From positions 1 through 25,466 of IMG/VR virus record IMGVR_UViG_2671180892_000012: 25,466 bases of DNA. One strand, written 5' to 3'. This document shows, in pieces, positions 5,413 through 22,124 of this stretch; the first letter of the stretch is position 1; each line of letters opens with the position of its first letter. The position numbers were made by a program, and so were the translations under genes. The notes below the pieces were generated by a model. The model was given only the letters and a program-made list of their open reading frames with translations. It was not told the DNA's origin and did not search any database. The stretch comes from a virus (lineage: Duplodnaviria; Heunggongvirae; Uroviricota; Caudoviricetes).

Positions 5413-6603
5413 TTAATTGCTGTTAACCGAGGTGACCAGATTTGCCAGGTATTTATCAGTAATACGCTGGCGCAGGGTCAGGTTTTCAAGAGGAGGCACC
5501 GGGGTATAGTCGTAGTCGATATACAGTTTTCCGGCCTTGAGGGTTTCCGCATCGTTGGATTCTTCACTGAACCAGCAGGTCGCATCCACGATATAGCCGT
5601 TTGTTTTCAGCTCTCGGAATTTGGCATTGATGCCGTCAACGATGTCGCGAATCAGCGTTGCGGTGATGGGCTTGTCCACCGCCCACATGTGCGCCTCAGC
5701 CATCGTGTCGGCCAGTACCTGCGCGGTGCGGGTGTAGTTTTCAAAGAGGAACAGCGGGTCATCAGAGCAGGTACGGTTACCCCAGAAGCGGAAACCGTCA
5801 CGGCGAATCAGTGTTGTGACGCCTGACTCGTTAAGCAGGTCAGCATCGGTGCCGGACTCCTGCAAATCCCAGAATACAGATGCGCTGATGCCGGTAACAC
5901 CGTTTACCCCGACGTTGGACAGCGTTTTATGCCAGCCCTGCTCATGGTCGATTCTGGCACGCAGACCCAGCGCACGGGCGGTGGCATACGCGGTAGCGGT
6001 GGTACTGGTGACCGTATCCCATGCGAGGAAATCCGGCCAGATGACCATCAGCTCACGCTGGCTGAAATTCTGACGGTAGGCTTTCACCTCGGAAATGGTT
6101 TTACAGCCCCATGCGCTGATATACCCGAAAGCGCGCAGCTTCTGACAGACTGATGCCAGTGCAACAGCCACCTCTTTGGTATCCAGCCCCGGCACACCGA
6201 GAATACGCGGTTTAACACCGGTTACCGACTCCGCCGCCAGCAGGGCTTTCAGTCCGGTGTACTGACCGTTTTCGTCGGTGGTTCCGATGATATTGGAAAC
6301 AGTCTGCGCGAGTTTCGTTTCTTCGTCTTCGCCGGTGCCGTCTTCCACACGCACGACAACGGTGACCGGTTTTGACTGGTCGGCGATAGCCTGCAACGAT
6401 GCCGCCAGCGTGCCTTTTTTACCGGCCTTTGCAATTGCGCTCTGCACATTGGTAATCAGCACCGGTTTATTGAGGGGGAAGGTTTCCGCATCCGCATCGC
6501 TGGCCGTGCAGACCATGCCAACAATGGCGGTGGATACGGTGGAAATGACGCGGGTGCCGTCGTTAATCTCCAGCACCTGCACGCCGTGATGATAGTCACT
6601 CAT
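5413..6603 (-). CDS. FI: Major tail sheath protein FI, 396 aa
   Basis: 396-aa ORF, ATG start, first gene of FI-FII-E-T-U-D operon; length equals P2 gpFI. Confidence 0.85.
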   Translation of the reverse strand: MSDYHHGVQVLEINDGTRVISTVSTAIVGMVCTASDADAETFPLNKPVLITNVQSAIAKAGKKGTLAASLQAIADQSKPVTVVVRVEDGTGEDEETKLAQTVSNIIGTTDENGQYTGLKALLAAESVTGVKPRILGVPGLDTKEVAVALASVCQKLRAFGYISAWGCKTISEVKAYRQNFSQRELMVIWPDFLAWDTVTSTTATAYATARALGLRARIDHEQGWHKTLSNVGVNGVTGISASVFWDLQESGTDADLLNESGVTTLIRRDGFRFWGNRTCSDDPLFLFENYTRTAQVLADTMAEAHMWAVDKPITATLIRDIVDGINAKFRELKTNGYIVDATCWFSEESNDAETLKAGKLYIDYDYTPVPPLENLTLRQRITDKYLANLVTSVNSN

Positions 6604-6675
6604 CCGTTTAACTCCGTGGTTAATGGGTGCAACTATTTTCTGTTGGGCAGTGCATAAGACGCTATTTGACCTGAC

Positions 6676-6693
6676 TGGTCAGTGGATGAAACA
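6676..6693 (-). promoter_or_regulatory. Candidate Ogr-dependent late promoter element upstream of FI (imperfect TGT-N12-ACA dyad)
   Basis: tggTCAGTGGATGAAaca is one mismatch from the P2 late-promoter dyad TGT-N12-ACA, centred about 80 nt upstream of the FI ATG; weak, pattern-based only. Confidence 0.3.
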
Positions 6694-6770
6694 ACAGATA
6701 AAGCCAGCGCCTTAGATTTGATGATAGGTGATGTAACCGTCTGTATATTCGAGCAAAAACTGAAATTATG

Positions 6771-6800
6771 ATGACTTTACCTTCCTTGGTTAAGTATACT
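6771..6800 (+). promoter_or_regulatory. Possible sigma70 promoter for the cargo gene (-35 ATGACT, 18-nt spacer, -10 TATACT)
   Basis: Hexamers read from sequence about 25 nt upstream of the ATG at 6825; GAGG ribosome-binding site at 6817-6820. Confidence 0.3.
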
Positions 6801-6824
6801 GTTCTTTTTTGATTGTGAGGATAT

Positions 6825-7409
6825 ATGGCACAGAATATGCCTAAAGAGCAGAGGGTTACACTCATTACGCTAGCTACTTTAACTGCAGTAGTCGCAGTCT
6901 TTTGGTTTTTGTCTATGGTGTTCGAGCATGAAATAAAATGTTTGGGCCCCTTAGTAGTTTCACTCTCAAGTGCAATACCAGTTTTTTCCTTGTGGTGGCC
7001 ATTTAAACCTAAGTACATATCCAAACGAATACGAAATACATTATCCGTTGATTTAAATATCACAAACCATGTTCTGTTTGGTGATGGAGATTACAAGTTT
7101 GACCCTTATTTTTCCACTGCGTCAAACAGAAGCCTTCATGTTATAACAAGATATTCTAATTATCTTTTGGGAGGAGCCCCCGCCTTAGAAATATATAACT
7201 TCCATGAGATTGGTGATGCAGAAGCATTCCCAATAAACAAACTTGATATAAATAACACGCCTATTGAGCAAGTGGTTATTTTGAAAAACATTCATAATAA
7301 ATACGCCTTAATAAAAATAAACTCAATTAATCAACAGCACCCTCATATTTTTGAGATCGAGTACATTCTAAACAGCGCAGGTTCTGGGAATTTTACGGAG
7401 TGCAGATAA
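6825..7409 (+). CDS. Hypothetical membrane protein (194 aa) at the P2 Z/fun cargo position, opposite strand to the late genes
   Basis: ATG with GAGG RBS; two N-terminal hydrophobic helices (VTLITLATLTAVVAVFWFLSMVF; LGPLVVSLSSAIPVFSLWWPF); visibly AT-rich compared with flanking tail genes; between G and FI, where P2 carries Z/fun. Confidence 0.6.
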   Translation: MAQNMPKEQRVTLITLATLTAVVAVFWFLSMVFEHEIKCLGPLVVSLSSAIPVFSLWWPFKPKYISKRIRNTLSVDLNITNHVLFGDGDYKFDPYFSTASNRSLHVITRYSNYLLGGAPALEIYNFHEIGDAEAFPINKLDINNTPIEQVVILKNIHNKYALIKINSINQQHPHIFEIEYILNSAGSGNFTECR

Positions 7410-7413
7410 ATAA

Positions 7414-7437
7414 ACACTTGGCTTAACAGCCAAGTGT
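7414..7437. terminator. Hairpin (9-bp stem acacttggc / gccaagtgt, 6-nt loop) after the cargo gene and after G; possible bidirectional terminator
   Basis: Inverted repeat read from sequence; T-rich tract on the minus-strand side (TTATTTAT), weaker on plus. Confidence 0.35.
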
Positions 7438-7664
7438 TGTCATGGTTCCTTACCGTAAGTTGAAACACCGAGGAGCGTTAGACGCAAGGAACATCGCTAT
7501 ATATGATAATTACCCAGAACTGATTGCTGTTTAATGTCACATTTTTTCAGAGAGGGTTCACGACTGGTCGAGTTTATAAAGACCCGCTTTTGGCACAGAG
7601 CGAACGGTCAGATTAGGCTTTACTCTGTGCCATAGATGTAATCTCACACCAGAGCTTATACAAC

Positions 7665-11999: not shown

Positions 12000-12631
12000 A
12001 GAGGTCCCCCGGTTGTGCCGCCGCTGTCGCCGGGGTGTTTATGGGTATGCAGTACCTTACCGTTTGATGAGAGTTCACCGCCGGTGTGTTCAATGTTGCC
12101 GCGCATCGTCCCGCCCTTCTGCACTTCCAGCGTGCCGGTAATCAGCCTGTTGGTGCAGACCACCTCCGGTGTGTCCAGGGTAACGCGGGTTGATGCTTTC
12201 ACCGTGACCACCGGCACCGTGGCAGTAACAGAATCAGAAGCCGTCACGCTGGCCGTTTTAATTCCGCTTACCGTGAGTGCACTGGTTTCGGGTTCGTACT
12301 CAATCACCGCCCCGTCAGGGAAACGGATATGCAGGGCATCCGCCGACGCAGACGGCGCGGGGTTATCGCCGGAATAAATCCCCGGCAGAACGAACGCGGT
12401 GTCGAGTTCGCCGCCCACGGACAGAATCAGCACCTGTTCCCCCTCGGAAGGTGCCCACCACGTGCGCGAACGACCGGCGCGATGGGTCAGCCACTGAAGC
12501 CAGTCGGTGCACATGCCGCCAGTCTGCACACGGCAGCGACCGGCGTTAAGGTCGGTTTCGACGACAAGACCGGTGCGGATCATATTGCGCAGTGCGCGCG
12601 CGAGTTCCTGAATATTTGCGAGAGTGTTCAT
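11996..12631 (-). CDS. V: Baseplate hub/spike protein V, 211 aa
   Basis: ORF-track start at 12649 is TTG; the ATG at 12631 gives MNTLANIQELARALRN... and the 211-aa P2 gpV length. Confidence 0.8.
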   Translation of the reverse strand: MNTLANIQELARALRNMIRTGLVVETDLNAGRCRVQTGGMCTDWLQWLTHRAGRSRTWWAPSEGEQVLILSVGGELDTAFVLPGIYSGDNPAPSASADALHIRFPDGAVIEYEPETSALTVSGIKTASVTASDSVTATVPVVTVKASTRVTLDTPEVVCTNRLITGTLEVQKGGTMRGNIEHTGGELSSNGKVLHTHKHPGDSGGTTGGPL

Positions 12632-12714
12632 GCATGTGAGATTGCACAATATATAAAAGTTATGCTATCTGGATTCATTTGTAGAACCACCAGACAACAT
12701 TCAAGGAGAGCATA

Positions 12715-13500
12715 ATGGTCAGCTATAATGTGACTAATGTGTGGGAGCTAATCGTTTTGTATCTTTTGGTCTTTGCAGTATTAGCATTTTTTTGCTTTGG
12801 TAAAAGTAACCTTATGAGGCTTATTGCACATTATTTCAAATTTGGATATTCAGACAAAAAATTAAAAAGACTGGACCGCGAGTGGCGCGACATTCAACTA
12901 TTTAAAACACTTAACGGAATCAATGTATCAGGCATCGAAGATGTGAGAATGATACAGCAGGGGCTGATTGATGGAAAACTAAAAACATCGGATTTTTTCC
13001 TTACTCGCTTCTGGGGAGACATAACAGAACCGCTATGCATCACAAAAACAATGAGTGCAGTCCTGGCCGGAATTCTTTATATTATCTTCGCATGTTACAT
13101 ACACAATGAACAATCCGCTATAGTAAGGGATGCCATAGGTATACCATATAAAAATATGATGTACTATGTTTATAGTGACAAAGTTCTTTTATCCTTCAAA
13201 AATAAAACAGTTGAATTTAATAAAACTTATAGCCTTGCCGATTGCAAGAGTCTGCAAAACGTATTTATAAAAGACACACTTCCTGAGATCGCCTGCAATA
13301 AGCTCTTACAGCTAAACGAGGAGGACTCCGAATGGTTAAGTCAGGAGATTAAAGATAATAACAGCCACAGAAAAACATTATTAATACTATCCCTCGTCTA
13401 TTTCATTTCAGGTTTGCTTATATTCCTGTCATATACAAAATTCCTTTACGCCAATAAGAAGGTTTTAGAATACAAAGCATCAAATAAAAACCACTCATAA
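12715..13500 (+). CDS. Hypothetical polytopic membrane protein (261 aa) at the P2 orf30 cargo position
   Basis: ATG with AAGGAGAG RBS; three hydrophobic segments (LIVLYLLVFAVLAFFCF; AVLAGILYIIFACYI; LLILSLVYFISGLLIFLSY); AT-rich; opposite strand to flanking V and S; followed by a strong hairpin. Confidence 0.6.
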   Translation: MVSYNVTNVWELIVLYLLVFAVLAFFCFGKSNLMRLIAHYFKFGYSDKKLKRLDREWRDIQLFKTLNGINVSGIEDVRMIQQGLIDGKLKTSDFFLTRFWGDITEPLCITKTMSAVLAGILYIIFACYIHNEQSAIVRDAIGIPYKNMMYYVYSDKVLLSFKNKTVEFNKTYSLADCKSLQNVFIKDTLPEIACNKLLQLNEEDSEWLSQEIKDNNSHRKTLLILSLVYFISGLLIFLSYTKFLYANKKVLEYKASNKNHS

Positions 13501-15444: not shown

Positions 15445-15684
15445 TTAAGCCGGTACGCCGCCGGCGGTACGCCAGACGGTGACCAGTTTTTCCAGTGAAT
15501 GCTCACGCTGACCGTAACCGGCACCCGGCAGGGACGCCCAGATATTGCGACAGCGTGAAATGGCGCGCTCAATGCGTCCCGCCCGGATGTCATCCAGTGC
15601 ACCGCGTTCGCGGATCAACTGAATGGCGAGTCTGTCCTGTGACAACGGACTGAAATCCGGCAGGGCAAGCTGTTTGCGGTAAGG
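15445..15684 (-). pseudogene. K: 3' fragment of endolysin gene K (C-terminal ~80 codons only, no start codon)
   Basis: Open frame reads ...PYRKQLALPDFSPLSQDRLAIQLIRERGALDDIRAGRIERAISRCRNIWASLPGAGYGQREHSLEKLVTVWRTAGGVPA and is closed upstream by a stop at 15685-15687; the ORF-track M at 15645 is a TTG; the N-terminal catalytic part is absent. Confidence 0.6.
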
Positions 15685-16352
15685 TCATCAGACTGGAAAC
15701 CTCACCGGCAAAATATACCCGCCGTGGCGTGGAGGAGGATGTTTACTGGTGGGTGCCGTCCTTCAACGAGCCGACAGCCTTCACGCCCGGCTCCGTGTTT
15801 CACCTGCTGGAGCCGGATATCAATCAGGAGCTGTACGGCCTGCCGGAATATCTCAGCGCCCTTAATTCTGCCTGGCTGAATGAATCAGCCACACTGTTCC
15901 GCCGCAAGTATTACGAAAACGGCGCTCATGCCGGATACATCATGTACGTCACTGATGCCGTGCAGGATCGCAACGATATCGAAATGCTCCGCGAAAACAT
16001 GGTGAAGTCGAAAGGCCGCAACAACTTTAAAAACCTGTTTCTCTATGCACCACAGGGAAAAGCCGACGGCATTAAAATTATCCCGCTCAGTGAAGTGGCA
16101 ACGAAGGACGATTTTTTTAATATCAAAAAAGCCAGCGCCGCTGACCTGCTGGACGCGCACCGCATCCCCTTTCAGTTAATGGGCGGCAAGCCGGAGAACG
16201 TCGGGTCACTGGGCGATATTGAGAAAGTGGCAAAGGTCTTTGTCCGCAATGAGCTTATCCCGTTACAGGACAGGATTCGGGAAATAAACGGCTGGCTCGG
16301 TCAGGAGGTCATCCGCTTTAAAAACTACTCACTGGACACTGACAACGGCTGA
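15654..16352 (+). pseudogene. Q: 3' fragment of portal gene Q (about 230 C-terminal codons, no proper start)
   Basis: Frame is open from 15654; ORF-track start at 15729 is GTG; convergent with the late operon and ends about 170 nt before cos, as expected for the Q 3' end; identification as portal is from memory of P2 Q and synteny. Confidence 0.55.
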
Positions 16353-16379: not shown

Positions 16380-16522
16380 ACACCCCCGTCATCACGCCCT
16401 CACACGCTCTCCACCGCACAAAACAGCCCGCAGGCAAACCAACGCCCCGGCGCACAATCTAAACGCTATCACGACGCGCTCAGACGCTGAAAAAATAAAA
16501 TCAGCACCACCGCCAGCGCGCA

Positions 16523-16541
16523 GTGCTTTCCCCGCCTCGCC
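16523..16541 (-). other. cos cohesive-end sequence (minus strand GGCGAGGCGGGGAAAGCAC)
   Basis: Plus strand gtgctttccccgcctcgcc is the reverse complement of the 19-nt P2 cohesive end as I remember it; located between Q and the old-position cargo, as in P2. Confidence 0.6.
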
Positions 16542-16647
16542 CGCCCGCTTCATGGGTCGGTTTTAATGCAGTTGCATAAACATAGTACAAGCGCGCCAGT
16601 CAAGCCTAGCGCACATACATAGAGAACGTATTTAAACATGCAAAATG

Positions 16648-16666
16648 ATGCACCCTATAGGTGCAT
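16648..16666 (-). terminator. Hairpin (atgcacc / ggtgcat, 5-nt loop) just downstream of the cargo operon; possible terminator
   Basis: 7-bp inverted repeat 13 nt after the stop of the 333-aa gene; minus strand continues CATTTTG. Confidence 0.3.
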
Positions 16667-16678
16667 TCATATTAAACA

Positions 16679-17680
16679 TCACCGAGCCATCTTGACTGCA
16701 TAATGAACACAAAAATAATGTTCTCCCGCATATCTAAAATGATGTTCAATTTTTCTCAAACCTATATATGGAGTCTCCACTTCTTTAATCCCAACTATCT
16801 CATGAGATTCTACACCAATATCTACCGGAGTAATCTCTTTTAGATAATCAATGTATCTCTCACACCAAGCATCAAATTTTGCGCCAGTATAATAAGCAAT
16901 TAAAAACAAGCGTTTAACATTAATAGGATTATAGTTACCAATTAGCTTTGAATAATGCTTTAATATGTTAGCTTGATCTAGAGATTTTAAAATCAATGCT
17001 TCTATTATAGCAAATAGATTTCCTTTATCTTCAATAACAAGATCTAATTCACCCGCACTTTTACCAGATTGAGACTCTCCCTCTCTAGTTTGATCTTTTA
17101 CCTCATAATTCTTAGCTAATAACATATCCCGTATAAAATCATTAAAATCATCTTCACCATATCCTTTAGCAGAGCGACGCCCCAATCTTTGAAGCACCCA
17201 AGATAAATCACTATCAAACTTTATAAAATTCAAAGGACGCTGCACTCGATCATCCTTTGATATTAAGCTTATACTATTAAGATTTAACAAATTAATCCTT
17301 TGCCTGATTAATTCATCAATATATCCAGAGTAACTATTATTATCTAACACTACGATATGCTTATCAAAAGTAGTGGCTGCATTAGCAACTGCACAAACAA
17401 CTATATCCTTAATATCCTCAGAACTATTCGGCACTGGTGTACGCAATATCTTGCCTGAAGGAGCTTTAGATAACTCAGACTCCCACTTCTTAAAAAACAA
17501 AAAAGAATCCTTGTTGTTTCCGCAAGACTTTAAATAACCTAAGCGAATTTTTCCATCAGCATCAAGAATCAACTCATTTTCACCATTAACAATGGTTTCA
17601 ATAAAAAAACCGCTAAACACTTTAACATCAGAAATATTAGCAGCAACAAATTCAGGACACAAACAAACAGCACAAAGCAT
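16679..17680 (-). CDS. Hypothetical 333-aa protein, second gene of the ATPase operon; candidate effector, family not recognised
   Basis: ATG 1 nt after the ATPase stop (translationally coupled); AT-rich; no transmembrane segments; C-terminal half has a pattern (FIRDMLLAKNYEV ... GELDLVIEDKGNLFAIIEALILK) resembling Mrr-like PD-(D/E)xK nuclease cores, unverified. Confidence 0.65.
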   Translation of the reverse strand: MLCAVCLCPEFVAANISDVKVFSGFFIETIVNGENELILDADGKIRLGYLKSCGNNKDSFLFFKKWESELSKAPSGKILRTPVPNSSEDIKDIVVCAVANAATTFDKHIVVLDNNSYSGYIDELIRQRINLLNLNSISLISKDDRVQRPLNFIKFDSDLSWVLQRLGRRSAKGYGEDDFNDFIRDMLLAKNYEVKDQTREGESQSGKSAGELDLVIEDKGNLFAIIEALILKSLDQANILKHYSKLIGNYNPINVKRLFLIAYYTGAKFDAWCERYIDYLKEITPVDIGVESHEIVGIKEVETPYIGLRKIEHHFRYAGEHYFCVHYAVKMAR

Positions 17681-17681
17681 A

Positions 17682-19349
17682 TCAATGAACTCCCTTTGAG
17701 TTCATTATTTTTTGTATCTTTAATTCCTGTATTCTAATTGTATCCTGAATCTCAACATCCATAAACTCATTTGGCCATGTGATATCTCCATCAGAATTCA
17801 CAGCCACTCTATTTAGTAAGGTTGATGTTCCCTCTTCATCTCGCTCAAGATGATAGATTGCCACATGGTCCTCAGTAAGTTCGCTTGATTCATCAACAAT
17901 TCTTAATCTAATCCGTCTAACTAATGCATCACTATGTGTTTCAATAATAAAAATTTTCTTTTCTTGCATAGATATTTTAATTAATGCGTCAGTTAACCAT
18001 GCCTGCATTTTAGGATGCAAATGTATTTCTGGTTGTTCTATTATTGTAATCGAGCCCTTTGGTGACAAATAAGCTTGAACCAAGACAGGCAACACTTGTG
18101 ATATTCCAAACCCTACATCTGTCAATTCTAAATTAACAGCATCTTGGTTTATAACTATCTTATGAATTATGTCATTAACTCTAACTATATCAACCGCTAA
18201 GTTAAATTCAGCGAGAAGAAGGTTTATGTTTTCTGTTATTTTTGTATTTTTCTTCAGAATCTCCGCCAACTCAGAGCCATCAGCAGAATTTAACTGAGCA
18301 TGATTGACTGTTTTATCTAATAAATAATAACGCTGAGGAAATGCCCTCAACGGGCTGACATGATTAACATTTTCGCCATCAAACATTTTTGAAAGCATTA
18401 ATACTCCCAGAGAAACAACATGTGACAAAAAGTTAACAACAGGGTTGTAGGAATTTCCAAAAAAAACATAAAAACCACGTCCTTCATTGACAGGGAATAG
18501 CCCCAAAGAATAAGGATTCATGATTTCTAAGATATCAGACTTACATCCTCTAAATACTTCTTGAGGGATAACATCCGACAATACAACGACATTATTCTTT
18601 TTGGGTAACAGTTCAACTATTCTTTCATCATTCTTATTTAGAAGAACAAATCTCGAAACCTTTACCACACCTTTATTTTTATCATATCTGAAGTCATAAC
18701 TTATTTTAGATGCAGACAATTTATTTCCTGAAATAGAAACAACTTTAGTTAGGCAATCTTTGATTCTCTTCAATGGGCATTCATATATAAATCTGCGTAA
18801 GTTTTCTGAGGTGGCCCGGCTAAACATAATATTATTGCCAGCATCTCTAAAAAGCATAATCAACTGGCACAATTTATCAGCAATAATATTTAATTTAGCC
18901 TCCTCAAACTCATCAAAATTAACAATGGCATTCAAAGATTCATTTATCAAATTATTGGCCTTCGCGACCAACTCATCATTATTTTTTACTGTCTGTATAG
19001 TGAATCGCATAATCATAGCAAATGATTCTAAAGTTTCTCTTCTCAGAGTATCAATGCCATTTTTAACTACGCTATTATCAGAAAAATCAAAGCTAAAGTT
19101 AAGTGTTTTGGAGTCATCTTTATTTTTTATAATATTTAATGCTTCCCCCATTCCCACTTTAGGTCCATTCAGCCGTAGAGCAGAGTCAGACAATGACATT
19201 GAATCAACTGTCTGAGAAAACATCAACAAAGAGTTAATTAGTGCACTTTTTCCACAACTATTTGCACCTAACAATATTGTCAATGGCTTTAAATCTAACT
19301 TAAAGCTTTCGTATGCTTTATAATTTTGTCCTGTAAAAGTTCTCAGCAT
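17682..19349 (-). CDS. P-loop ATPase of the OLD/ABC (AAA_15/AAA_21-like) type, 555 aa, no Toprim domain
   Basis: Walker A GANSCGKS at codons 28-35 (nt 19245-19268, checked by reverse complement); Walker B/D-loop ITIIEQPEIHLHP and H-loop IIETHS near residues 433-473; about 400-aa insert between them; AAGGAG RBS 8 nt before the ATG; AT-rich. Confidence 0.8.
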   Translation of the reverse strand: MLRTFTGQNYKAYESFKLDLKPLTILLGANSCGKSALINSLLMFSQTVDSMSLSDSALRLNGPKVGMGEALNIIKNKDDSKTLNFSFDFSDNSVVKNGIDTLRRETLESFAMIMRFTIQTVKNNDELVAKANNLINESLNAIVNFDEFEEAKLNIIADKLCQLIMLFRDAGNNIMFSRATSENLRRFIYECPLKRIKDCLTKVVSISGNKLSASKISYDFRYDKNKGVVKVSRFVLLNKNDERIVELLPKKNNVVVLSDVIPQEVFRGCKSDILEIMNPYSLGLFPVNEGRGFYVFFGNSYNPVVNFLSHVVSLGVLMLSKMFDGENVNHVSPLRAFPQRYYLLDKTVNHAQLNSADGSELAEILKKNTKITENINLLLAEFNLAVDIVRVNDIIHKIVINQDAVNLELTDVGFGISQVLPVLVQAYLSPKGSITIIEQPEIHLHPKMQAWLTDALIKISMQEKKIFIIETHSDALVRRIRLRIVDESSELTEDHVAIYHLERDEEGTSTLLNRVAVNSDGDITWPNEFMDVEIQDTIRIQELKIQKIMNSKGVH

Positions 19350-19588
19350 ATAATCTCCTTTTTAATAATAGTATAAATGTTATGTCTCATAAGTTTTACC
19401 ATATATACACCACGTTATGGCAAATCTCATCAAAAATGAAAGCATCTCTTTTTATACATTTAAGCAGCAACCTGTTTCTCTGACCACCCATAGCCGTAGT
19501 ATGACGCATAGAAAAGAAAACATGAACAGATGTTACAAAAAATGTAATATGCTATACAAAACAATGCATTACAGCCTGAAGCGCTATC

Positions 19589-21859
19589 TTATACTACAAA
19601 TTCCGGCCACTCATCAGCGACCGGATACGTGAATTTTTTCCCGTCATAATTTACGGTTGCCCCACGCGCCAGCGACTCAAGCTCCCATCGCTGAGGTCTG
19701 ATACCGTTCTGAGCAAGATCAACGCGAATACGGGTAATTTGCAATCGTTCCGACCTGGTCAGCCTGGCCGATGGCGCTATTTCATGCGGTTTTAACGGGC
19801 TTCCGTTTCTTTGCTGACGATTTGGTCTTCTCAGGCCGTGTTTTAATGCCCCCCTGAGCCCCCTCACGACCTCCGGGTCATTCCATTCAATAACACCGTC
19901 ATCTACCAGATTAAGCACTGCTGCGGCGTGTTCAGAAGGCGTGGGAGCCGGTGACGAAGTATCACCACCGGTGAGCTTTCCACAGTTATTGACAGGACTC
20001 CGAGGCGCGGCGATGCCGCTTTTTAAAGTCAAAGGCTCAACGACCGGCACTTTCGGAACAATGCGCCAGTCCGTCGTTCTGGTGATATGAATATGACGCG
20101 CGCCGAGATGCGGCGCGTAAATGCCGACCACTCTCTCGACTTCTTCCTCGTACTCGTTAACGTCATCCGACGGGCTACGGGCGACCCTGACAGTCTGGCA
20201 ATCGCGCGGGACATTTGCCCCGCCCTGCGCGCTGATATACAACGCAAAATCACCACTGTCTGCAGCGGCGCGTGCAGCCTCGACGCGCTCGTCAAACTCA
20301 TCAGCAATGCTGACGCCGCGAGGCAATTTGCGTAGTTCACGGTAAGCCCCCATTGTCGGCAGACCAACCGTTTTAAATTGCGGGATGCGCCACGTTGACG
20401 CCCATGCGGTAACAGCCGCGGCAGTATCTTTCAGCGGTCTGCCGGTATCATTATCGAGCTGACCATCCAGTGCATAGCCGTCGATATTTTTTGAGATGTA
20501 TTTCGCGATATACCCCGCAGCACCGCCCCGGTTAAGATGTTTTGCCTGAAAACGGTTTCGCGCGGCTCCTCTTTCGTCTCCATCCTCTTTGAGCGCGTAG
20601 CGACGCATGATTTCAATAATCTGGTTACGCTGGCGTGGATTACAAAAAAGCATCATATGCCAGTGCGGCGTTCCGTCGTGGTGTGGCTCGACGACACGCA
20701 AACCGTAGACCTGTAAATCATTATCCTTGAATGCCGTGCGCATCAGGCTCCAGATACGGCAGAGATAACGCTGCGCATCCTTTGGATTAAATGCCTCATC
20801 GTTCCAGCCGTGATTAAGCTGCACGGTTTTACTTTCGCCTTTTCCGACCTGACGTGTCGGGTGATACTTTGACGGCGCGGTCAGCGTGATAAACATCCCC
20901 ACATCACCCTCTGCAGCGGCGTAACGCTCAATACCGGCAATGGTGTTCATCAGCTCCATCCGGCGAATTTCAGGATTAGAAATACTGCCCATCACCTTAC
21001 TGATAAGGTCGATGCGCTCGCCGGTTTCCCTGTTCTCAAGGTCACACGATTTAAGAAACTCCAGATTTGCCTGGCGGCGCGCACGCACATCACGAATGGC
21101 ATGTTTACTGGCATAAGGAGAACGGTCTTTATTGACCTCCCCGACAGCAATCAGTAACGCCTCATGCCAGCGCATACGCTGGCCTTTAAGCTGATGAGTC
21201 CACCACTCATCGTTAAACAGGCGGGCAATGGCAGAATATGCCTGCCTCGTGGTCATCTGTCCTTTACGGTATTTTTTCCAGTAGAGAGGGGAAATATTGA
21301 AAGCACGTGCAGCGCCAGCAACATGACCATAGAGGTGAGCCTGCGCCTCATCCGTAAACAGCGATTCTTTCTCGCCATGCGCATCCACCCAGGCATCGCA
21401 GAGTTCCTCATACATCATGAAAAGCTGTGATGAGATACGGGCGGCAAACTTTTTCAGCTCCTTGTCATTCATCCCCGGCAGACGCGCATACTGGTCGCGC
21501 TCTGCCAGAAACAGCAACGACGCGTCGGTGTTCATTTCATGGCGCTGATTCACGCGCTCAATGCGCGGCCATAAACGACGCTGAAAAGTGGATGTGAGGA
21601 AATAAAACCCGTGCACCGGGCTTTTATTGCGCCGGATGTAGTCATAGCGTGAAGTAAACAGCGAGCGCAAAAAGTAAGGCAGGCGGTTAATCGTGGATAA
21701 AACACCTTGCACCTGACGCATCTCGTCACGTGTAAGGGGTCTTTCGCGCCCGACGGCCTCGCGTGGCGCGTTCCATGCATAAGCACCGGTAAACGTCTTA
21801 CCGGTGCCTGCGGCAAATGCTGACGGAGGGACAAAATGCCCGGAGGCTTTAACGGCCAT
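19589..21859 (-). CDS. A: Replication initiation protein A (rolling-circle nicking endonuclease), about 756 aa
   Basis: HUH-type motif EPHHDGTPHWHMMLF and active-site tyrosine region GYIAKYISKNIDGY; ORF-track start at 21901 is TTG, the ATG at 21859 gives MAVKASG...; position after B and the small ORFs as in P2. Confidence 0.85.
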   Translation of the reverse strand: MAVKASGHFVPPSAFAAGTGKTFTGAYAWNAPREAVGRERPLTRDEMRQVQGVLSTINRLPYFLRSLFTSRYDYIRRNKSPVHGFYFLTSTFQRRLWPRIERVNQRHEMNTDASLLFLAERDQYARLPGMNDKELKKFAARISSQLFMMYEELCDAWVDAHGEKESLFTDEAQAHLYGHVAGAARAFNISPLYWKKYRKGQMTTRQAYSAIARLFNDEWWTHQLKGQRMRWHEALLIAVGEVNKDRSPYASKHAIRDVRARRQANLEFLKSCDLENRETGERIDLISKVMGSISNPEIRRMELMNTIAGIERYAAAEGDVGMFITLTAPSKYHPTRQVGKGESKTVQLNHGWNDEAFNPKDAQRYLCRIWSLMRTAFKDNDLQVYGLRVVEPHHDGTPHWHMMLFCNPRQRNQIIEIMRRYALKEDGDERGAARNRFQAKHLNRGGAAGYIAKYISKNIDGYALDGQLDNDTGRPLKDTAAAVTAWASTWRIPQFKTVGLPTMGAYRELRKLPRGVSIADEFDERVEAARAAADSGDFALYISAQGGANVPRDCQTVRVARSPSDDVNEYEEEVERVVGIYAPHLGARHIHITRTTDWRIVPKVPVVEPLTLKSGIAAPRSPVNNCGKLTGGDTSSPAPTPSEHAAAVLNLVDDGVIEWNDPEVVRGLRGALKHGLRRPNRQQRNGSPLKPHEIAPSARLTRSERLQITRIRVDLAQNGIRPQRWELESLARGATVNYDGKKFTYPVADEWPEFVV

Positions 21860-22124
21860 GTGAGCCAAAAGCCTCTGAACAACGCCTGCTGAGTTGCTCA
21901 ACCTGCGCGTTTAAATCAGCAAAAGACTTTGCGCTTCCGGTCAGAATATCGTGATGCATCATGCCGGAAACGAGCTGGCTTAATTTCGGGTAATAACCAA
22001 CCACCGCCAGCCATTCCTGACCGGCGTTTTTACCGCTTTCAGCTCTCTTTTTCTCGTGGAGAATAAACTGAAAGCTGTCACTGGTAACGACATAACGTTC
22101 GCCAATTTCAATACGAATACTCAT
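21849..22124 (-). CDS. Hypothetical early-region protein, 91 aa (occupies the P2 orf83 position)
   Basis: ATG start; tightly packed between the zinc-finger ORF and A. Confidence 0.55.
   Translation of the reverse strand: MSIRIEIGERYVVTSDSFQFILHEKKRAESGKNAGQEWLAVVGYYPKLSQLVSGMMHHDILTGSAKSFADLNAQVEQLSRRCSEAFGSHGR

Follow-up and report, generated by a model that had tools for sequence, protein, structure and literature searches.

The two described systems closest to the locus studied here, the minus-strand operon of ORF555 and ORF333 (ORF, open reading frame) in a 25,466-nucleotide stretch of Caudoviricetes DNA (IMG/VR record IMGVR_UViG_2671180892_000012; hereafter the window), are HEC-03 and Menshen. 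HEC-03 (Hma-embedded candidate 03) consists of an ABC ATPase and a VapC-like PIN protein; it protects E. coli, needs both genes, and is toxic when its expression is induced (Payne et al. 2024, bioRxiv 10.1101/2024.01.29.577857). Menshen (NsnABC) has been proposed to work through NsnA as sensor, NsnB as transducer and NsnC as effector (Millman et al. 2022; Li et al. 2025, PMC12065111). In an AlphaFold3 prediction of an NsnB4-NsnC2 complex, the DUF3696 tails of the NsnB tetramer clamp the inactive PIN domain of NsnC; the motifs of NsnB are reported to deviate by having EN for DE, Arg for Gln and GxG for SGG (PMC12065111). In P2-like prophages, the cos-proximal region between gpA and gpQ has been defined as a hotspot, and the supplementary table of its cargo lists 'AAA_15/AAA_21 + hypothetical, WP_024249463 + WP_024249462' (Rousset et al. 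2022). WP_024249463 is the window's ATPase, ORF555. The eight P2 systems tested in that study, as described, include no pair of an ATPase and a hypothetical protein.

We concluded, with a probability of about 0.64, that the ORF555-ORF333 operon is a two-gene anti-phage (or anti-mobile-element) module built of an ABC ATPase and a nuclease, and that it belongs to the clade of HEC-03 and the NsnB-NsnC core. This conclusion is supported by the identities of the domains, the conservation of their motifs, the strict linkage and co-divergence of the two genes, their location in the hotspot and their homology to a validated system. The pattern is not due to chance: both ORFs had dozens to thousands of homologs, with E values down to 0. 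The first-pass annotation of the locus had proposed an undescribed system of a family that could not be named. That claim was overstated, because the ATPase matches NsnB, HEC-03B and PDC-M55A and its wider clade is that of the validated HEC-03, and it was weakened further by the NsnC-type architecture of the partner and by the earlier cataloguing of the pair as hotspot cargo. We regard the pair as a putative variant of a recently validated defence family (HEC-03, Menshen-like) and not as a wholly new kind of system.

ORF555 matched AAA_15 (8e-25) and AAA_21 (2e-17) in Pfam, and no Toprim domain was found in it with Pfam, PADLOC or NCBIfam, which agrees with the first-pass call of an OLD/ABC-type P-loop ATPase that lacks Toprim. 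The top PADLOC matches were NsnB of Menshen (2e-51), HEC-03B (5e-43) and PDC-M55A (5e-41), with AriA (3e-28), GajA, PtuA and AbiLi well behind; the PADLOC matches were split into two stretches because the protein carries a long insert. The AlphaFold model of ORF555 (predicted local distance difference test score, pLDDT, 82; predicted template modelling score, pTM, 0.82) has an ABC head. Foldseek searches with this model returned only remote relatives at ~10% identity, namely the retron Eco8 effector, GajA, PtuA, OLD and the heads of SMC and Rad50, and the PDB sequence-profile search returned only an OLD nuclease (2e-8). We rejected membership in the OLD-family nucleases (Old, GajA, retron Eco8 effector), as ORF555 has no C-terminal Toprim domain and its model ends in beta strands and a helix; its matches to GajA and Eco8 were confined to the ATPase part. 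The retron Eco8 effector and MAD3 of MADS were also set aside on NCBIfam matches far below cutoff (32–43 versus 250–420 bits).

The nucleotide-binding motifs of ORF555 are conserved and unusual. Walker A (GANSCGKS) occupies residues 28–35, and invariant positions in 31 homologs were G28 and K34-S35 of Walker A, R335, G413-F-G415, E438-Q439-P-E441 and H472. R335 sits where the Gln of the Q-loop is expected, G413-F-G415 is the signature and E438-Q439-P-E441 is Walker B. Across 88 members of the clade (L001-L088), the Walker B dyad was EQ in 77 and AQ or SQ in the others; none had the canonical DE. The motif read hhhhEQPE in 77/88, and its second Glu (E441) was invariant. The signature was always GFGISQ and the Q-loop position read PLR, with EQ, PLR and GFGISQ each present in 77–88 of the 88 members. 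These sequences suggest that the invariant Walker B 'EQ' marks an ATP-binding switch with slow hydrolysis, and throughout the clade ATP may be bound but poorly hydrolysed, or the catalytic base may be a shifted one. Outside the motifs, the insert between the ATPase halves was 23–27% identical to ORF555 among homologs, compared with 64–75% in the core, making this fast-evolving part a candidate sensor surface. The C-terminal tail is, by analogy with NsnB, a candidate partner-docking site; DUF3696 (PF12476) is carried by the ORF555 homologs P0155, P0158, P0143, P0162 and P0167 (41–45% identity).

The partner, ORF333, matched no family in Pfam, PADLOC, NCBIfam or PHROGs. Thus, when both proteins were put through Pfam and PADLOC as the first-pass annotation had proposed, the ATPase matched a named system with high confidence and the partner did not. 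PDB sequence-profile searches with ORF333, with the protein P0194 and with an LmuB-like neighbour returned nothing. The N-terminal domain of ORF333 aligned by MAFFT in register with the PIN domains bearing the DTNV motif, and the catalytic positions are lost in it (the beta1 Asp is replaced by Cys/Pro and a Glu by Gly). A hidden Markov model of this domain picked up the partners of four relatives (L013, L014, L022, L032). Judged by these alignments, the N-domain is homologous to the HEC-03A-type PIN partners, a relationship supported through intermediates, and we propose that it serves as an adaptor. The C-terminal domain carries the near-invariant residues E176, D196-Q197, E211-x-D213, E227, H242 and K245; in 135 distant carriers of the domain, E176, D196, Q197, G210, E211, D213, E227, H242, K245 and Y250 were conserved at 92–100%. 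CARF-PDDEXK was considered as an identity and rejected, the single weak match (E 0.007) fitting the fold and not family membership.

A motif-based scan of 100,044 species genomes yielded 80 loci with ATPase relatives at 27–50% identity, and nearly all of these ATPase genes were followed by a tightly coupled gene, at a distance of −32 to +15 nt. Their partners form a series. Distant ATPase relatives (~450–470 aa) have partners of 156–185 aa that begin with the canonical PIN motif (V/I)DTNV; relatives in Bacteroidota have partners of 140–196 aa whose N-terminus reads YTICP or YTISP and lacks the beta1 Asp; and relatives in Gammaproteobacteria have partners of 333–343 aa with HCICPxF at the N-terminus plus the nuclease domain. 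The PADLOC model HEC-03A was matched by 36 of 75 partners (best 7e-67), and the ATPase of one such locus, L050, is a full-length HEC-03B (9e-130) that matches NsnB too (1e-58). In L015 and L022 the partner keeps the N-domain and has a different C-domain. These differing C-domains and additions indicate that the partner is polymorphic, as has been described for NsnC. Two further observations concern the partners. In one distant relative, the partner ORF at L044:5327-6232 joins a canonical DTNV PIN to an RNA_ligase domain (PF09414, 3e-20) and overlaps the end of the ATPase gene by 32 nt; it may represent an unusual effector, or ORF calling may have fused two genes. In L013 and L016-L033 (Bacteroidota and others), the 140–196-aa partner is PIN-like without the beta1 Asp and ends in a short tail rich in Ser and Asn; no effector domain could be recognised in it.

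No DUF262/NsnA gene was found upstream of the 80 ATPase relatives; the large genes scanned there, 21 in number, all had housekeeping functions (SecA, tRNA synthetases, GyrB, PhaC and the like). In many contexts the two genes stay together as a unit and diverge in step, from 99% down to 35% identity, and this speaks for an autonomous module. These results bear on whether the pair could be a degenerate Menshen whose NsnA was lost or is encoded elsewhere, so that it would be inactive or reliant on a DUF262 sensor in trans. NsnB is indeed the best PADLOC match of the ATPase, and the partner has the NsnC architecture of an inactive PIN joined to an effector domain. We nevertheless consider this very improbable, given that no DUF262 gene adjoins any of 88 ATPase relatives, that their large upstream genes are housekeeping, that the two-gene unit is conserved and co-diverging, and that the catalytic residues are strongly conserved.

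The pair recurs as a unit in other genomes. E. coli N61 carries, between pflB and pflA, a P2-like prophage that matches the window at 100% identity across the operon; its two genes bear the annotations 'AAA family ATPase' and 'hypothetical protein', and the GenBank entry 'P2-EC5 ORF555 and ORF333' of strain ECOR5 holds the same pair at 99.4%. Of 5426 complete E. coli genomes, 6 had the window's allele family and 5 others had an allele diverging by 48%, and PLSDB gave one distant Vibrio match only. In IMG/VR, all ten partner homologs (38–99% identity) lay directly 3' of an ATPase, and eight of the ten loci were between gpA and portal gene Q of P2-like phages, three oriented as in the window and five the other way round. 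ATPases with 48%, 49% and 44% identity were followed by partner homologs with 43%, 38% and 35% identity, and these pairs were located in another P2 prophage, IncFII RepA contigs and a Pseudomonas chromosome. The ATPase and then the partner were directly adjacent in all close genomic relatives.

We weighed here the idea that the pair benefits the phage outside defence, as a recombination or repair nuclease or as a replication or packaging accessory of P2-like phages. Its position next to replication gene A and cos fits, as does the action of the ABC ATPase and nuclease pairs SbcCD and Rad50-Mre11 in repair. The pair is, however, missing from reference P2 and most P2-like phages (the operon was covered in 1 of 78 matching phage records, and in E. 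coli the pair was present in 11/5426 genomes), occurs in either orientation and outside phages too, and has a foreign base composition, and unrelated cargo fills the slot in other prophages. Such a function is therefore hardly credible. Regarding that cargo, the slot in other E. coli P2-like prophages held an ImmA/IrrE metallopeptidase with a hypothetical protein, or DUF2975 and Panacea-domain proteins, which illustrates the turnover of the hotspot.

The nuclease domain extends well beyond this pair. When 1.84 billion representative proteins were searched with a profile, 1290 clusters showed similarity to ORF333, ~30 of them over the full length; in the remainder, residues ~145–331 formed the C-terminus of proteins of ~300, 380, 485, 560 or 1300–1450 aa, including fusions to AbiTii, NACHT/STAND and AlbA_2. 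An abundant ~560-aa family matched the PADLOC model for LmuA (2e-30) and closes three-gene operons (218 aa, ~690 aa, ~560 aa) typical of Lamassu. Two such loci were inspected (L089:2282-6677 and L090:2252-6689), and in both the domain comes last in a conserved operon of three genes resembling a Lamassu subtype; the ~690-aa protein has an SMC-like Walker B/signature tail, and the neighbours are a relaxase in L090 and, in L089, a ParE toxin together with AlbA_2 and TIR genes. If the pair is confirmed, this would be a widespread nuclease domain that Pfam and PADLOC v2 have overlooked, and P2-hotspot and Lamassu-like loci that carry it would consequently be under-called.

The role of this domain as the terminal effector of Lamassu-like three-gene operons raises the question of whether the pair instead surveys DNA against plasmids and other mobile elements in the manner of Lamassu/Ddm or Wadjet, the ATPase recognising DNA ends or structures and unleashing the nuclease on foreign DNA. 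The resemblance of the ATPase fold to the DNA-acting SMC/Rad50 heads, GajA and OLD, and the BamHI-like fold of the nuclease, would suit that function. Against it, the AlphaFold model of ORF555 has neither a long coiled coil nor a zinc hook, the locus has no LmuC- or kleisin-like third gene, and HEC-03 was validated against phages; we judged this explanation unlikely.

An addiction module of the toxin-antitoxin kind was the other explanation to be weighed. Here ORF333 would act as a toxic nuclease that ORF555 neutralises, and the main effect of the pair would be to stabilise the prophage or plasmid that carries it, with no phage sensing. The presence of the pair on mobile elements (P2 prophages and IncFII RepA contigs), its persistence in a defective prophage, the toxicity of induced HEC-03 and the Pfam description of AAA_21 as a domain related to 'AbiEii toxin, type IV TA' all point this way. 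We found it decidedly unlikely all the same, as the pair lies in a hotspot devoted to anti-phage cargo, the nearest of its relatives with experimental validation are defence systems dependent on both genes, and deletion of either PARIS gene is non-toxic. On the question of whether the nuclease has to be held in check by the ATPase, one viral contig (L096:3242-5000) is relevant: its ATPase is split into two ORFs, by a frameshift or a sequencing error, and its nuclease gene is intact. An essential antitoxin broken in this way would be lethal, although this is a single contig.

Under the preferred reading of an anti-phage ATPase-nuclease module, ORF555 would oligomerise and hold ORF333 through the dead PIN domain. 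Docking would probably involve the C-terminal helices of the ATPase, as predicted for NsnB-NsnC, and would hold the nuclease inactive. Once the variable insert sensed a cue from a phage, the nucleotide state or conformation of the ATPase would shift, and the nuclease would be released or activated to cut nucleic acid. DNA is the more likely substrate because of the BamHI-like fold, and RNA is possible too. The phage would be stopped directly or by abortive infection. More tentatively, at odds slightly below even, the pair may be an autonomous unnamed system in which a once-active PIN, as in HEC-03, turned into a docking adaptor and a PD-(D/E)xK warhead was added. It would then be an intermediate that explains the polymorphic NsnC, and its C-domain would represent a large effector-nuclease family outside Pfam (~1,300 clusters at 50% identity) common to Lamassu-like, AbiTii-, STAND- and AlbA_2-linked immune proteins. 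The proposed order of events would be a HEC-03-like ATPase-PIN core, then effector swapping and then recruitment of the NsnA sensor.

Several points weigh against the conclusion that the operon is a defence module. Defence itself, the trigger, the substrate, complex formation, sequestration and release, and the outcome are all things that we infer. A literature search (accessions, P2-EC5, DUF3696, HEC-03/PDC-M55, Menshen/NsnC, and ABC ATPase + PIN + PDDEXK) found no experimental test of the pair, and a 2025 nuclease-NTPase survey did not include it. The pair is rare, being present in ~0.2% of complete E. coli genomes (11/5426), and it sits in a defective prophage, so that the bacterium, and not the phage, may be the target of selection. 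The Walker B 'EQ' could mean that ATP is not hydrolysed at all. The tail of ORF555 scored below the 22-bit cutoff for DUF3696 (E 0.009, 16.7 bits), and ORF333 had no direct match to the HEC-03A and NsnC models. Lastly, the PD-(D/E)xK motif is non-canonical, with a hydrophobic residue and no Lys at E227+2; the Lys of the classical ExK is thus probably supplied by K245 in the next helix.

The layout of the locus (Table 1) matched the first-pass annotation closely. That annotation had described two translationally coupled minus-strand genes with a 1-nt gap and an AAGGAG ribosome-binding site; the exact coordinates were confirmed, with the ORF555 stop TGA at 17684-17682, a single base at 17681 and the ORF333 ATG from 17680, and the AAGGAG was found. 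A ribosome-binding site for ORF333 is annotated too in AM157364. The AT-richness that it had noted against the phage backbone was borne out by a G+C content (GC) of 0.32–0.38 over 16501–19500 versus 0.49–0.59 in the flanks. A scan for the sigma-70 consensus upstream of the operon on the coding strand gave no match of at least 9/12. Only replication gene A lies upstream of the ATPase in the window, and cos and the portal remnant lie downstream, so the pair sits between cos and gene A as claimed; GGCGAGGCGGGGAAAGCAC is presumably the P2 cos core. The suggestion that this slot is the cos/A (old-tin) cargo hotspot of P2 likewise held, as it matches the gpA-gpQ hotspot next to cos of Rousset et al. 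2022.

Table 1. Positions of features in the window.
Feature	Coordinates	Strand	Basis or remark
ORF555, ABC/OLD-type (AAA_15/AAA_21) ATPase of the NsnB/HEC-03B clade	17682..19349	-	Pfam, PADLOC, motifs
ORF555 insert, residues 91–325, helical bundle + beta sheet, between ATPase halves	18375..19079	-	identity, model
ORF555 C-terminal tail, residues 491–555, long helix 534–552	17685..17879	-	AlphaFold model
ORF333, partner/effector protein	16679..17680	-	ORF list; family-library scans
ORF333 residues 1–145, PIN-like domain without PIN catalytic acids	17246..17680	-	
ORF333 residues 150–333, PD-(D/E)xK (BamHI-like) nuclease domain	16682..17233	-	
Shine-Dalgarno AAGGAG of ORF555	19355..19360	-	5 nt ahead of ATG
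Shine-Dalgarno-like AAGGGAG of ORF333, within ORF555 3' end (translational coupling)	17690..17696	-	
AT-rich intergenic region 5' of operon, presumed promoter	19350..19588	-	
Terminator-like hairpin + T-rich tract, 12 nt past ORF333 stop	16648..16666	-	
GGCGAGGCGGGGAAAGCAC, one hotspot boundary, next to portal-gene remnant	16524..16542		
Replication gene A, upstream of operon	19589..21901	-	
Portal gene Q, C-terminal remnant	~15678..16352	+	
Lysozyme remnant	~15445..15681	-	
ORF of 194-aa hypothetical protein	6825..7409	+	
ORF of 261-aa hypothetical protein	12715..13500	+	

The prophage around the operon is defective. The lysozyme remnant directly abuts the C-terminal remnant of portal gene Q, which indicates that the block of terminase, capsid and holin genes was deleted, and the tail sheath gene is frameshifted according to RefSeq. 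This cryptic prophage still retains its defence cargo. Two further AT-rich islands were observed in the window. The one at 6500–7500 (GC 0.36–0.44) lies between the tail sheath gene and the tail-fibre assembly genes, where P2 has its Z/fun hotspot, and encodes a hypothetical protein of 194 aa; the protein had no Pfam or PADLOC match and could be further uncharacterised cargo. The other, at 12500–13500 (GC 0.35–0.42), encodes a 261-aa hypothetical protein, also without a Pfam or PADLOC match, between baseplate gene V and the virion morphogenesis gene, which is the P2 orf30 position.

If our conclusion is true, the operon adds a compact E. coli member to the superfamily of ABC-ATPase/nuclease defence systems, and with only two genes it would make a more tractable system than three-gene Menshen for studying how NsnB-type ATPases control PIN-tethered effectors. 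The series of loci, from active PIN to dead PIN alone to dead PIN plus nuclease, would document the change from nuclease to adaptor and the modular exchange of effectors, and the invariant clade-wide Walker B 'EQ' would raise a testable question about ATP-binding switches versus ATP-hydrolysing motors.

The pair was also compared with other known systems. Old and Tin occupy the same slot in reference P2, and Old has an ABC-type ATPase domain; Old is, however, a single polypeptide with a C-terminal Toprim domain, whereas neither a Toprim domain nor a Tin homolog was found here. P2 Old/Tin, which the first-pass annotation had excluded too, was ruled out on these two grounds. AbiL, Septu and Gabija were ruled out because the partner is not RloB/AbiLii, the HNH nuclease PtuB or a helicase (no model match at E<=1 for AbiL and Septu); the annotation's exclusion of Septu PtuB and Gabija GajB stood, and the pair is not a retron effector either, the partner having matched none of their models. 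PD-T4-4 and other PD systems were ruled out as well, the partner having no PADLOC match. With Lamassu the pair shares the C-domain of ORF333, which is homologous to the C-terminal domain of the ~560-aa LmuA-model proteins, but the locus has no LmuB or LmuC, ORF555 is not LmuB-like, and only the effector domain is common to the two. PARIS (AriA-AriB; Rousset et al. 2022) also combines an AAA_15 ABC ATPase with a separate nuclease effector in P2/P4 hotspots, and the logic is likely analogous, an ATPase scaffold sequestering the effector until a phage trigger. It was ruled out because AriB is a DUF4435 Toprim nuclease and ORF333 has no DUF4435 or Toprim match (Pfam, PADLOC); the match of ORF555 to AriA (3e-28) is also weaker than those to NsnB or HEC-03B.

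HEC-03 and Menshen resemble the pair most. Like HEC-03, it consists of two tightly coupled genes, the first for an ABC ATPase and the second for a PIN-fold partner; the two ATPases are homologs (HEC-03B 5e-43, partial coverage) with the EQ, PLR and GFGISQ motifs in common, and the N-domain of ORF333 aligns with HEC-03A-type partners. The HEC-03 partner differs in being a 160–180-aa VapC-like protein with the DTNV motif that is itself the effector, whereas ORF333 lacks the PIN acids, has the extra PD-(D/E)xK domain and gives no HEC-03A match; ORF555 is also ~90 aa longer with another insert, and matches HEC-03B in two stretches only. Because its partner lacks an active PIN and matches no model, the pair is not HEC-03 in the strict sense. 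Nor is it strict Menshen, because there is no NsnA (ParB-DUF262 + ParBDB) in the window or in any relative examined; in addition, PD-(D/E)xK is not among the 15 listed families of NsnC C-terminal effectors, and ORF333 matches no NsnC model. The likeness to Menshen lies in the EQ, R335 and GFG of the ORF555 clade, which parallel the EN, R and GxG of NsnB, in NsnB being the best PADLOC match of ORF555, if only in two stretches, in the DUF3696-type tail within the family (below cutoff in ORF555 itself), and in the NsnC architecture of ORF333, an inactive PIN N-domain followed by a C-terminal nuclease. By analogy, the ORF555/ORF333 module would most likely work like both HEC-03 and Menshen.

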